From NCBI GenBank assembly GCA_963716815.1, contig CAVQUM010000003.1:261320-325319 (forward strand): a stretch of DNA of 64,000 bases, in the 5' to 3' direction. The notes beneath the pieces are model-generated. The model was not told the origin of the DNA. It did not search any database and saw nothing but the letters and a program-made list of their open reading frames with translations. How positions within the stretch are numbered: position 1 is the first letter of the stretch; every line of letters begins with the position of its first letter. The translations under genes and the position numbers were made by a program. This stretch comes from an uncultured Chloroflexia bacterium. GTDB taxonomy: Bacteria > Chloroflexota > Limnocylindria > Limnocylindrales > CSP1-4. Of this stretch, positions 47,885 to 51,484 are shown in pieces.

Positions 47885-48386
47885 GTGCCCCACGAGAGCC
47901 ATGTGGACGGCCTGCCGGCGCTGGTGCTGACCGTCAGCGATGGCGTCAGCGCGGGCACCCGCGAGGACCGCAGCGGCGAGGTCGTGGCCGAGCGCCTGAC
48001 CGGGCTCGGCTTCGAGGTGCGCCGTGAAGCCGTGGCCGACGAACCCGCTGACATCGCCCGCGTCGTGGCCGCGGCGGCGGACGGCGGTACCCGCCTCGTC
48101 GTCACCTCTGGCGGCACCGGGCTGGGCCCGCGCGACCGCACGCCCGAAGGCGTCACCACCGTCATCGACTACGTCGTGCCGGGCTTCGGCGAGGCCATGC
48201 GCGCCGAGGGCCGGACGCACACGCCGCTGGCGAGCCTCTCACGCTCGTTCGGCGCGGTGCGCAGACAGACGCTGATCCTGTGCCTGCCCGGCAGCCCCCG
48301 CGGCGCCCTCGAATCGCTCGATGCGGTGGACATCGATCCTGGGCCACACGCTCGAGACCCTCGCGGGGCGCACGGCCCACACGTAG
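47885..48386 (+). CDS. mog: Molybdenum cofactor biosynthesis protein MogA/MoaB
   Basis: Contains 'VLTVSDG' and '[13 protein letters not shown]'. A frame break near 48338 gives the end '...[16 protein letters not shown]'. Confidence 0.82.
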
Positions 48387-48408
48387 CGGTGGTGTAACCT
48401 CACGAGCG

Positions 48409-48973
48409 ATGCGCTGTCCGAACTGCGGGACGCTGGACGGCCGAGTCATCGATTCCCGTGATCTCGACGAGTCGACGACCGTCCGACGGCGCCGCGAATG
48501 CTCCGGTTGCCGCTCGCGCTACACCACCTACGAGCGCGTGGAATCTGCGCGTCTGGTAGTGGTCAAGACGGACGGCACGCGCGAGGAGTTCGACCGCGAC
48601 AAGCTCGCCGATGGACTGAAGAAGGCGCTGGTGCGCCGCCCGGTGGGGGCGGGTGCGGCCGACGGGGCCGCGGACGAGATCGAAGCTGCACTGCGCGCCC
48701 AGGGCCTCAACGAGATCCGCCTCACGCGAGATCGGCCAGCTGGCCATGGAGAAGCTGCGCGCGCTCGACCACATCGCCTTCATCCGCTTCATGAGCGTGT
48801 ACCAGTCGTTCGACGACATCGAGCAGCTCAAGCAGGAGGTCGACGCCCTTTACGAGGAGCGCAGCGACCGCGTACCCGGCCAGACGACGCTGCGCCTGGT
48901 CGCGGAAGATGGGGCCATCACGCCCATCGGCCCGCGGGGCACGCCGCGCCGCCGACCGACCAAGCGCAAGTAG
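48409..48973 (+). CDS. nrdR: Transcriptional repressor NrdR
   Basis: Zn ribbon 'MRCPNCG...CSGC' and ATP-cone '[16 protein letters not shown]'. After a frame break near 48722 it reads '[32 protein letters not shown]'. Confidence 0.88.
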
Positions 48974-48981
48974 GGGTTCCC

Positions 48982-50622
48982 ATGAGCGTCCTCGCCGACC
49001 GCGATATCCGTACCGCCATGCAGGAAGGGCGCATCCGCATCGATCCCTTCGACGAGGACTGTCTGCAGCCATCCTCGGTCGACCTCCACCTCGACCGCGA
49101 GTTCCGCGTCTTCCACAACTACCGCTACGCACGCATCGACCCACGCGTGGAGATGCCCGACCTGACCGAGCCGACCGAGGTCGACGGTGACGAGCCGTTC
49201 ATCCTGCATCCGGGCGAGTTCGTGCTGGGCCAGACGCTCGAATGGGTCGAACTGCCCGACGACCTCGTGGCTCGCCTGGAGGGCAAGGCACTCGCGCTCG
49301 ACACGCCGGTGCCAACGCCCAGCGGCTGGCGCAGGATCGGTGACCTGGAGATCGGCGACTACGTCTTCCACGAGAGCGGACGGCCGATCCCGATCATCGA
49401 TGCTACGGATGTGATGCTGGACCGCCCGTGCTATGAGGTCATCTTCTCCGATGGCCAGCGCGTCATCGCCGACGCCTCGCACCAGTGGGTCACCATCGAC
49501 AAGAGCGGACGTCGTCGCGGACGCCAGGTCCGCACGGTTCGCACGACCGCCGAGATCGCCGAATCGGTACGTCGCCAGGGCGAGATGAATCACCACATCC
49601 CTCTCGCGTCGCCAGTGGAGTACCCGCATCGTCTTGACCTGCCGATCGAGCCGTACACCCTCGGTGCCTGGCTCGGCGACGGGACCACGACGACGGCCGA
49701 GATCACCTGCTGTGACGAGGGTGTCCTCGAGCGCATCAGCGGGGACGGCTACACCGTCAGGCGCACTGGCTATGGCACACGCTTGTACCGCATCGGTGGG
49801 ACCGGCAGCACGAGAGACCTGCTGAGCGGTCGATACACTCGCAACGGCTCGCTCTCGAGTGAGCTCCGCAACCTCGGACTGATGAACGGTAAGTTCGTGC
49901 CTCGGCCATACCTGGAGGCGAGCGTCGCGCAGCGGCAGGCACTTCTCGAAGGCCTGATGGACACCGACGGCTTCGTGGACGACGTCGCCGGCCGCTGCGA
50001 ATTCGTCAGCACCAACGAGAGCCTCGCGAACGGCGTGCTGGAGCTTGCCGCGAGCCTCGGCTTCAGGCCGATCAAGTCCGAAGGCCGAGCGATGCTCGAT
50101 GGAGTCGACCACGGCCTCAAGTACCGTGTGAAGTTCACGCCGGATCGACCGGTCTTCGGACTCCAGCGGAAGGTGGCCCGCCAGCGGCCGAGCGACTCGC
50201 GGTTCCACCGCTTCCGGGCGATCGACGCGGTGCGTAAGGTCGCCTCGGTTCCCGTTCGCTGCATCCAAGTGGCCTCGCCCGATGGCGTCTTCCTCGTCTC
50301 GAAGTCGTTCATCCCGACGCACAACAGCTCCCTCGGACGGCTGGGACTGCTCATCCACTCGACCGCGGGGTACGTGGATCCAGGCTGGAAGGGCAACCTC
50401 ACGCTCGAGCTCTCGAACGTGGCCAACCTGCCCATCGCGCTCTACTTCGGGATGCGCATCGGCCAGATCTCGTTCTTCGAGATGTCCAGCCCGGTCGAGC
50501 GGCCATACGGCAGCAAGGGCCTGGGCTCGCGCTACCAGGGACAGCGTTCACCCACCGCCAGCGGCGCCTACCGCGACTTCGAGGACAGCCGCCGCACGAC
50601 CAAGGGAGGCCCGCGCAGCTGA
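48982..50622 (+). CDS. dcd: dCTP deaminase interrupted by an intein
   Basis: The N-extein is '[23 protein letters not shown]...[30 protein letters not shown]'. The C-extein is '[31 protein letters not shown]...'. The exteins join to the conserved G(K/R)SSLGRLG active-site motif. Confidence 0.9.
49288..50325 (+). mobile_element. Intein (346 aa) with a LAGLIDADG homing-endonuclease domain; Ala1 and a class 3 (WCT) signature
   Basis: Block A is '[26 protein letters not shown]'. Block B is '[13 protein letters not shown]'. The LAGLIDADG motifs are '[10 protein letters not shown]' and '[12 protein letters not shown]'. Block F is 'PVRCIQV' and block G is 'FIPTHN|S'. Confidence 0.88.
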
Positions 50623-51484
50623 TGGCCATCGACGCGACCGCCGACTGGCGCAGCGACCTCGGCGGCGGTACCACCATCGCCCTGGTCCAGGCCGGCGTCT
50701 TCACCACCGACGCCGGCACCGATCCTGGGTCCCGTACCGCGCGAGATGTGGGAGCACCTCGTGGAGGACGAGCTCGACGAGCGCCACCGCGTGACGCAGG
50801 CGCTCAACTGCCTGCTGGTGGAGACGCCTGCGGGCCGGGTGCTGGTCGAGACCGGCGTCGGTGAGCGCATGGACGACCACCACAAGGCCCAGCGCGGCGT
50901 GCGCGGGAAGCCCATCCTGCCCTCGCTGCGGGACGGCCGGGTTCGACCCTGACTCGATCGACTACGTGGCCCTCTCGCACCTCCACTTCGACCATGCCGG
51001 CGGCCTGCTCACCACGGCCGGTGAGTACGCCTTTCCCAAGGCGCGCATCGTGGCCCAGGCCGACGAGTGGCGCTTCGCGCTCGACGACAACCCTCGCCTC
51101 ATCGCCTCGTACGAGCAGGCCGAGCTGCGGCTGGCTGAGGCCTGGGCACGCCCCGGTTCGGCCGATGGCGACGAGGAGCTCATGCCCGGTGTCGAGGTGC
51201 GCCGCACGAGTGGTCATTCGGGCGGCCACCAGGCGGTCATCGTGCGCGGCCGCGACGAGACCGTCGCCTTCATCGGCGACCTGTGCATGCGACCGTGGTC
51301 GGCCAACCCCAGGTGGGTCACGTCCTTCGACGACTTTCCCTTGACCTCGGTGGAGGTGAAGGCCGCGCTCTTCGCGGAGGCGGCCGCCGAGGACTGGACG
51401 ATCGTGCTCTCGCACGAGCCGCGCGCACCCGTGGGCAAGCTGCGGCCCTACAAGGACAAGTACCGCTTCGAGTCGATCCTCTAG
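50622..51484 (+). CDS. MBL-fold metallo-hydrolase
   Basis: Contains 'NCLLVETPAGRVLVETG', 'LSHLHFDHAGG' and 'GHSGGHQAV'. Frame breaks lie near 50725 and 50935. The ATG overlaps the dcd stop. Confidence 0.75.

Follow-up and report, generated by a model that had tools for sequence, protein, structure and literature searches.

A probable class 3 intein with a LAGLIDADG endonuclease domain in the dCTP deaminase gene of an uncultured Chloroflexota bacterium

What is a stop-free insert of 346 codons doing in the middle of the active-site motif of a dCTP deaminase gene, and how would an active enzyme be made from such a gene? The question is raised by dcd in a 64,000-nucleotide stretch of DNA, hereafter the window (contig CAVQUM010000003.1, assembly GCA_963716815.1), from an uncultured bacterium of the Chloroflexota order Limnocylindrales. 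An earlier note on this stretch, made from the letters alone, had called the insert a class 3 intein with a homing endonuclease. Our comparisons with solved structures, protein families and homologous loci support that call, and we put the probability that the insert is a functional class 3 intein with a LAGLIDADG homing endonuclease in dcd at roughly 85%.

Direct reading of the forward strand gives a dcd open reading frame of 546 amino acids (aa) at 48982–50622, with ATG at 48982 and TGA at 50620–50622. Codons 103–448 (49288–50325, 1038 nt) form the in-frame insert, which breaks Dcd between Lys102 and Ser103 inside the motif EGK/SSLGRLG. The first codon of the insert (codon 103, 49288–49290) is GCA for Ala, and its last two, CAC AAC (His-Asn, 50320–50325), end the sequence FIPTHN, after which AGC (Ser, 50326–50328) opens the host sequence SSLGRLG. 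Removal of the insert in silico gives a Dcd of 200 aa that reads RLEGK/SSLGRLGLL across the junction. The three parts of the gene are as follows.

48982–49287, + strand: dcd N-extein, 102 codons, ending in RLEGK; Pfam DCD match at residues 3–102, aligned to 1XS1 and 2QXX, with Lys102 at the place of E. coli Dcd Arg110.
49288–50325, + strand: putative class 3 intein, 346 codons, Ala1 to Asn346; E = 7.5e-32 to the solved intein 6RIX, and a model (pLDDT 89) resembling PI-SceI and 6BS8/6RIX.
50326–50622, + strand: dcd C-extein, 98 codons and the stop, beginning with Ser+1 in SSLGRLG; TIGR02274 match at residues 448–527, with Ser+1 at the place of E. coli Dcd Ser111 (1XS1).

The host is recognised by NCBIfam TIGR02274 with 197.6 bits (cut-off 92.8) and likewise by Pfam DCD, each match falling in two stretches; together with the direct reading, these matches bear out the claim that dcd is split by 346 codons within its conserved G(K/R)-SSLGRLG active-site motif. 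The nearest solved structure to the intein-less Dcd is the M. tuberculosis dCTP deaminase:dUTPase (Dcd:dut) 2QXX (E = 5e-72). In an alignment to E. coli Dcd (1XS1), the host motif G(K/R)SSxxRxG falls on G109-R110-S111-S112...R115, and the break maps between Arg110 and Ser111 in G-R-S-S-L-A-R-L-G. We take Ser111 and Arg115 of the E. coli enzyme to be catalytic residues, and the interrupted motif is presumably phosphate-binding motif 2 of the dUTPase superfamily. By homology, then, the host is a dCTP deaminase closest to the bifunctional M. tuberculosis Dcd:dut, split in a phosphate-binding active-site motif.

The insert shows the marks of an intein, with blocks A, B, F and G, a C-terminal His-Asn, the nucleophile Ser+1 and a host sequence that is restored on removal. 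Class 3 inteins are defined by a non-nucleophilic residue 1 that co-varies with a Trp/Cys/Thr triplet and by Ser or Thr at +1 (PMC2807308), the triplet lying at positions B:12, F:4 and G:5 (PMC5050341). All of these features are present in the insert as Ala1, Trp67/Cys325/Thr344 and Ser+1: block B reads DASHQW, with His65 at 49480–49482 and Trp67 at 49486–49488, block F reads VPVRCIQV, with Cys325 at 50260–50262, and block G reads IPTHN. The residues listed in the earlier note (Ala at residue 1, S-H-Q-W, P-V-R-C-I-Q-V, I-P-T-H-N and Ser at +1) were thus all read correctly. Its description of class 3 features also stood, with the small correction that the prototype, the mycobacteriophage Bethlehem (MP-Be) DnaB intein, begins with Pro and not with Ala (PMC2807308).

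A search of the PDB with phmmer gave as matches the Mycobacterium chimaera (Mch) DnaB1 intein 6RIX (E = 7.5e-32) and the M. smegmatis (Msm) DnaBi1 intein 6BS8 (E = 1.1e-29), and since the first of these is a solved class 3 intein, the motif pattern is not a matter of chance. The alignment to 6RIX and 6BS8 is gapless over the first 69–70 residues, with 57–58% identity, and the last 35 residues are 49% identical. His65 and Trp67 even share their numbering with the counterparts in the catalytic site of MchDnaB1, Cys325 aligns with Mch Cys124 and Msm Cys118, and Thr344-His345-Asn346 aligns with T143-H144-N145 of MchDnaB1, whose active site consists of the catalytic triad Cys124-His65-Thr143 plus Trp67 (PMC7664689). 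The earlier note had named an alignment of Trp, Cys and Thr outside B:12, F:4 and G:5 as the result that would speak against it; in the alignment the three residues fall on the catalytic positions, and the class 3 call is supported by the solved class 3 inteins themselves. The two parts of the HINT splicing domain are as follows.

49288–49587, + strand: HINT N-terminal part, blocks A and B, about aa 1–100, with Cys48 (49429–49431), Asp62, His65 and Trp67; gapless alignment to 6BS8/6RIX.
50173–50325, + strand: HINT C-terminal part, blocks F and G, with Cys325 (F:4) and Thr344-His345-Asn346 (50317–50325); corresponds to Msm Cys118/Mch Cys124 and the PTHN end.

An AlphaFold2 model of the intein, built from an alignment of 120 dcd inteins, has a mean predicted local distance difference test score (pLDDT) of 89.2 and a predicted template modelling score (pTM) of 0.88. 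The splicing domain of the model is covered by 6BS8 and 6RIX with template modelling (TM) scores of 0.82–0.86, normalised to the target.

Splicing by the class 2 route, of the Mja KlbA type, would have the +1 residue attack the N-terminal junction directly, and Cys325 would not be the first nucleophile. In Mja KlbA, the class 2 intein that has been characterised, the +1 residue is Cys, whereas the insert has Ser there. Class 2 is marked by the absence of the F:4 Cys and of the Trp/Cys/Thr triplet, and the triplet is here complete and invariant. The homology at E = 7.5e-32 is, moreover, to inteins that need the block F Cys, the C118A variant of Msm DnaBi1 being splicing-dead (PMC6195587). The Ala1 of the insert would suit class 2 as well, to which such a first residue is common (PMC7664689), but we give this route only a slim chance, and class 3 splicing through Cys325 is the reading that we carry forward.

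The conservation of the proposed catalytic residues was followed in 120 cluster representatives of dcd inteins, 70–100% identical to the window intein. Cys48, His65, Trp67, Cys325, Thr344, Asn346 and Ser+1 are each present in 120/120, and His345 in 119/120; Ala1 is likewise carried by 119/120, which makes it genuine and not a sequencing error. A single dcd intein of the 120 (P0001–P0120 alignment) has Ser at position 1 and keeps the Trp/Cys/Thr triplet. The wider family comprises 18,621 relatives at E ≤ 0.001 among 1.84 billion representative proteins. We sampled 121 full-length copies from the best 150 of these, as 50%-identity cluster representatives: Trp and Cys of the triplet are found in 121/121 each and Thr in 119/121, the first residue is Ala in 101 copies and Pro in 10 others, and Ser or Thr occupies +1 in 116/120.

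Pairwise ratios of nonsynonymous to synonymous substitution rates (dN/dS), taken over 25 complete genes, have a median of 0.13 in the endonuclease domain, 0.17 in the splicing domain and 0.18 in the extein, and the whole element is therefore under purifying selection. Synonymous divergence (dS) is higher in the intein (0.67–1.18) than in the flanking exteins (0.49–0.66) of the same genome pairs (window against L002–L004), which may mean that the intein has a history of its own or that codon bias differs between the two.

These figures bear on the possibility that the insert is a decayed intein that does not splice, with dcd a pseudogene in the source organism, as in the known case of the Arthrobacter Arth_1007 intein (PMC3196547). 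Several genes of the surrounding assembly do contain frameshifts. Compared with homologous loci, the window has specific 1-nt insertions at ~47550 (moaC), ~48334 (mog/moaB-like), ~48718 (nrdR) and ~50722 and ~50934 (both in a metallo-beta-lactamase-fold gene), and the reading frame is visibly broken in at least three genes, namely moaC, nrdR and the metallo-beta-lactamase-fold gene. Four of the five insertions lie at GATC and resemble sequencing errors, a pattern that points to systematic mistakes of long reads at a methylated motif. In the dcd-intein frame GATC occurs 13 times, and the frame is nowhere broken; it is an intact frame of 1641 nt, as had been claimed in spite of the error-rich assembly, and its key codons are borne out by over 100 homologues, which makes the intein call independent of assembly quality. 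With all splice-junction and catalytic residues present and invariant across the 120 homologues, and an extein dN/dS of 0.07–0.10 in comparisons with the three closest alleles, we consider it very unlikely that the intein has decayed or that dcd has become a pseudogene.

Between the two halves of the HINT domain the insert carries the second component of the proposed element.

49588–50172, + strand: LAGLIDADG domain, about aa 101–295 (approximate limits); matches to Pfam LAGLIDADG_3/Hom_end and PI-SceI, Asp131/Asp227 in 120/120, dN/dS 0.13.

LAGLIDADG motif 1 occupies aa 123–134 (49654–49689, with Asp131) and motif 2 aa 219–230 (49942–49977, with Asp227), and both are invariant across the 120 dcd inteins. 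Pfam LAGLIDADG_3 (PF14528) matches with 23.7 bits (cut-off 22.5) and Hom_end (PF05204) with 22.1 bits (cut-off 21.1). PI-SceI matches intein residues 121–285 both by sequence (E = 2e-6) and by fold (E = 4.8e-20), being the best PDB match of the model at TM 0.69–0.72; other endonuclease-containing inteins and I-DmoI also match. These matches agree with the alpha-beta-beta-alpha-beta-beta-alpha fold that, together with a conserved acidic residue in each of two LAGLIDADG motifs, marks intein-encoded endonucleases of the PI-SceI type. The presence in the insert of blocks A, B, F and G and of two LAGLIDADG motifs, as first noticed from the letters, thus agrees with our own reading, the PDB homology and Pfam, and the confident model lends further support to a homing endonuclease.

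Such a domain need not still be active in homing. Splicing could be intact in an element that is now inherited vertically and repeatedly and precisely lost, and structure or some other role would explain why the endonuclease domain persists; Msm DnaBi1 and MchDnaB1, the solved inteins most closely related to it, are mini-inteins from which the endonuclease has disappeared (PMC6195587). Against this, the catalytic aspartates Asp131 and Asp227 are both present in 120/120 dcd inteins, and the dN/dS of the endonuclease domain is the lowest of the three regions. Further evidence on both sides comes from the distribution of the element.

With the spliced Dcd as query, many intein-free orthologues of 200 aa were found, up to 95% identical. 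The check for an empty site proposed in the earlier note yielded an exact intein-free allele, L001 (GCA_040777605.1), which is syntenic and has a 95% identical Dcd, with nrdR upstream and the metallo-beta-lactamase-fold gene downstream. The alignment of L001 to the window, at ~86–88% nucleotide identity, stops at 49287 and resumes at 50331, and by eye the junction is exactly 49287/50326. A further 80 empty dcd alleles were collected from metagenomes. Occupied dcd genes are present in 31 GTDB species genomes, all of uncultured Chloroflexota and mostly labelled Limnocylindria/Limnocylindrales, and overall the dcd intein allele is found widely, in over 200 sequence clusters that represent at least two phyla. 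When the exteins are placed in a neighbour-joining tree, from a short alignment and with no support values, occupied and empty alleles are intermixed.

One occupied locus stands apart in the quality of its match: in L030:3001–4039, from a metagenome-assembled genome of the 'MFD' series, the intein match is 1039 nt long with E = 3e-104, against ≤1e-155 for the other full-length matches. The frameshift that this implies is probably another assembly error.

Outside Chloroflexota, the same dcd site and signature occur in Actinomycetota, in Gaiellaceae, Frankiales, Blastococcus and the isolate Geodermatophilus sp. URMC 62; these actinobacterial copies are 53–57% identical to the window in the intein and 64–66% in the exteins. 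The cultured Geodermatophilus sp. URMC 62 (GCA_052931475.1, L116:2501–4144) has the class 3 signature and a 54% identical intein, and its gene is annotated just as 'dCTP deaminase'. A more distant copy, P0289 (L117:612–2126, Logan contig SRR22000184_133364), adjoins genes for an endolysin, an HNH endonuclease and a metallophosphoesterase, and the contig is probably that of a phage. Its intein is 47% identical to that of the window and its Dcd just 39%; an intein better conserved than its host protein is what one would expect after a move of the intein from one host gene to another. Scans of IMG/VR with the window precursor and P0289 as queries showed no dcd copy among the relatives, which sit at P-loop sites, terminase-like or other, and in one case outside a P-loop.

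The host codons at the junction provide a second source of information, since they belong to the presumed target of the endonuclease.

49273–50340, + strand: presumed homing site halves, ~15 nt on each side (extent assumed), CGCCTGGAGGGCAAG before and AGCTCCCTCGGACGG after the intein; the empty allele L001 reads CGCCTGGAGGGCAAG followed directly by TCGAGCCTCGGCCGC.

The codons for Ser+1 and Ser+2 (50326–50331 in the window) are AGY-TCN in 29/29 occupied Chloroflexota alleles, while the 80 empty alleles comprise 29 with AGY-TCN, 29 with TCN-AGY, 15 with TCN-TCN and 7 with AGY-AGY (Fisher's test, p = 1.8e-10, occupied versus empty, phylogeny ignored). Both codon classes encode Ser, and the difference is thus unrelated to splicing chemistry. 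Two readings fit the bias: the endonuclease would cut AGY-TCN sites alone, the other alleles being resistant, or the junction codons would be co-converted with the intein. AGY-TCN as a universal target requirement was rejected, as two actinobacterial occupied alleles read TCA-TCG (L116) and TCG-AGC (L118), and the rule is therefore limited to the Limnocylindria intein lineage.

A single codon class in all occupied Chloroflexota alleles is also what common descent predicts, and among 119 alleles those with an intein more like that of the window tend to have a more similar extein too (r = 0.62), both of which suit an element that no longer homes. On the other side, the nearest empty neighbours of occupied alleles often carry another Ser-codon class (L001, L035, L040), the intein outscores the host gene in the comparison with the phage-like copy, and the element is present in two phyla. 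Taken together, we regard vertical inheritance with a non-homing endonuclease as unlikely, and present-day homing activity, as judged from the sequences, as somewhat favoured.

Where the element came from is indicated by its relatives. In the wider family, the insertion is at G-K/S or G-K/T in 77/120 copies and Lys stands at −1 in 92/120, the flanks being typical Walker A loops of terminase large subunits and DnaB-like helicases; the position between Lys and Thr is the 'classic' P-loop intein insertion (Kelley et al., PMC5050341). The motif of Dcd is likewise G-K/S-S-L, although Dcd is not a P-loop protein, and some family copies have closely similar flanks, such as GNGK/SSLS and KNGK/STLA. 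Mycobacterial DnaB may read GK/STLGL at the DnaBi1 site, a likeness to GK/SSLGR that is given no weight here. In a neighbour-joining tree, again of a short alignment with no support values, five dcd-intein cluster representatives are monophyletic, and their 17 nearest non-dcd neighbours are all at GK or AK sites before S or T. These data suggest that the intein probably entered dcd by one ectopic jump from the Walker A family through the short common motif, and then spread among dcd genes. The wide spread of the allele and its membership in a huge class 3 family at P-loop GK/S and GK/T sites make the finding less surprising.

A fuller scenario can be built on this, which we offer as tentative and rather doubtful. 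The convergent peptide G-K-S-(S/T)-L, or the DNA coding for it, would have allowed the jump from P-loop NTPases to an unrelated fold, and homing in Limnocylindria would now leave alleles with the synonymous codons TCN-AGY and TCN-TCN resistant. If true, resistant Ser-codon alleles would account for AGY-TCN in all occupied Chloroflexota alleles and in 29 of the 80 empty ones.

Several points weigh against the proposed functional intein and its homing. Pfam intein-splicing models gave no match to the splicing domain at E ≤ 0.1; Pfam and NCBIfam detect the endonuclease and DCD parts only, and the HINT domain is assigned through the PDB and family searches. The interspersion of occupied and empty alleles and the monophyly of the dcd inteins come from short unsupported trees and are indicative only. 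The AGY-TCN rule fails in the two occupied alleles read from Actinomycetota and may reflect shared descent or co-conversion instead of endonuclease specificity. Every mechanistic step, from splicing and the branched intermediate to DNA cleavage, is drawn from homology.

With this qualification, the proposed cycle would run as follows. The precursor of 546 aa would be synthesised with the EGK/SSLGRLG motif split and presumably be inactive. Cys325 (F:4), placed by His65, Thr344 and Trp67, would attack the Lys102-Ala1 bond, and the N-extein would be kept as a thioester branch on Cys325 and then transferred to the side chain of Ser+1. Cyclisation of Asn346, assisted by His345, would free the intein, and an O-to-N acyl shift would give the native Lys-Ser bond and an active Dcd. 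The free intein would then act as a PI-SceI-like endonuclease that cuts intein-free dcd at the site coding for GK/SS, and repair would copy the intein in.

A further residue may make this maturation conditional. In Msm DnaBi1, Cys48 is essential for splicing and forms a disulfide with the catalytic Cys under oxidative stress, and the authors call it non-conserved (PMC6195587). Here Cys48 (49429–49431), invariant in the dcd inteins, is found in 106/121 copies of the wider family as well. Given this conservation, it is conceivable, as speculation, that a Cys48-Cys325 pair makes Dcd maturation, and hence the supply of dUMP for dTTP synthesis, redox-sensitive.

The neighbourhood of dcd shows some details of its own. 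The gene nrdR (48407–48975, + strand) lies directly upstream, and its break at ~48718 leads the open reading frame finder to fuse it with dcd into a frame of 780 aa (48280–50622). The dcd stop overlaps the start of the downstream metallo-beta-lactamase-fold gene (TGATG, 50620–50624). This downstream neighbour is also present in the empty L001 and aligned in L002–L004, and the upstream nrdR region also aligns in L001–L004, L033 and L034.

The finding extends the hosts of class 3 inteins to a nucleotide-metabolism enzyme of the dUTPase fold, and it indicates that the 'P-loop' preference of the family can be satisfied where an unrelated fold offers a short G-K-S motif, which bears on how inteins choose their sites. 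The allele is abundant in uncultured Chloroflexota of soil and freshwater, and the cultured Geodermatophilus isolate offers a tractable system. The many alleles found in nature, some occupied and some empty and differing synonymously where the intein joins, offer a ready data set for distinguishing target specificity from co-conversion in intein homing. Automated annotation labels the precursors of 530–560 aa 'dCTP deaminase' or 'LAGLIDADG family homing endonuclease' and leaves the intein unflagged.

As to precedent, our literature search found no paper combining class 3 inteins with dCTP deaminase and none linking Limnocylindria and inteins; a Chloroflexi case lay outside its reach, as intein-containing dCTP deaminases are cited for one proteobacterium and one member of Chloroflexi (MacGregor 2013, as cited in PMC6293099), the latter perhaps the present allele. 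Thus dcd as host gene and site for class 3 inteins seems not to have been described previously, whereas the mechanism class, the family and the endonuclease type are well known. Phage PaBG was rejected as a dcd-intein precedent, as its inteins sit in terminase and not in Dcd.

Among known systems, the nearest by host is the intein in the dCTP deaminase of cyanophage vB_AphaS-CL131, whose self-excision has been shown in E. coli (PMC6293099). It lies in the same motif region, but from our reading of the gene it has Cys1 and Cys+1 as in class 1, an HNH and not a LAGLIDADG endonuclease, an unrelated sequence and a site at GKSTYAR/CGI, five residues downstream of the present one; it is therefore a different element. 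PI-SceI, the yeast VMA1 intein (1VDE/1LWS), has the same bipartite layout of HINT and LAGLIDADG domains as the dcd intein and differs in being class 1 (Cys1, Cys+1), eukaryotic and only 16–18% identical.

The inteins in the terminase large subunits of mycobacteriophages Bethlehem and Baka have the same architecture and length, with full-length tblastn matches of 36–39% identity. Mycobacteriophage class 3 inteins share the Trp/Cys/Thr triplet and the 'classic' insertion between the P-loop Lys and Ser/Thr (PMC5050341), but their hosts are phage terminases and helicases, and the identity is far below that among dcd copies. The closest solved relatives remain Msm DnaBi1 (6BS8) and M. chimaera DnaB1 (6RIX/6RIY), homologous to the dcd intein at E = 1e-29 to 7.5e-32, which also have Ala1, Cys48, His65, Trp67, the VPVRC Cys, the PTHN end and Ser+1. 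Like the dcd intein, they are inserted after G-K of a nucleotide-phosphate-binding motif, and the +1 Ser is also functional in the host enzyme. They are, however, mini-inteins without an endonuclease in the Walker A loop of a P-loop helicase, whereas the dcd intein has a full LAGLIDADG domain and a host of the dUTPase fold.

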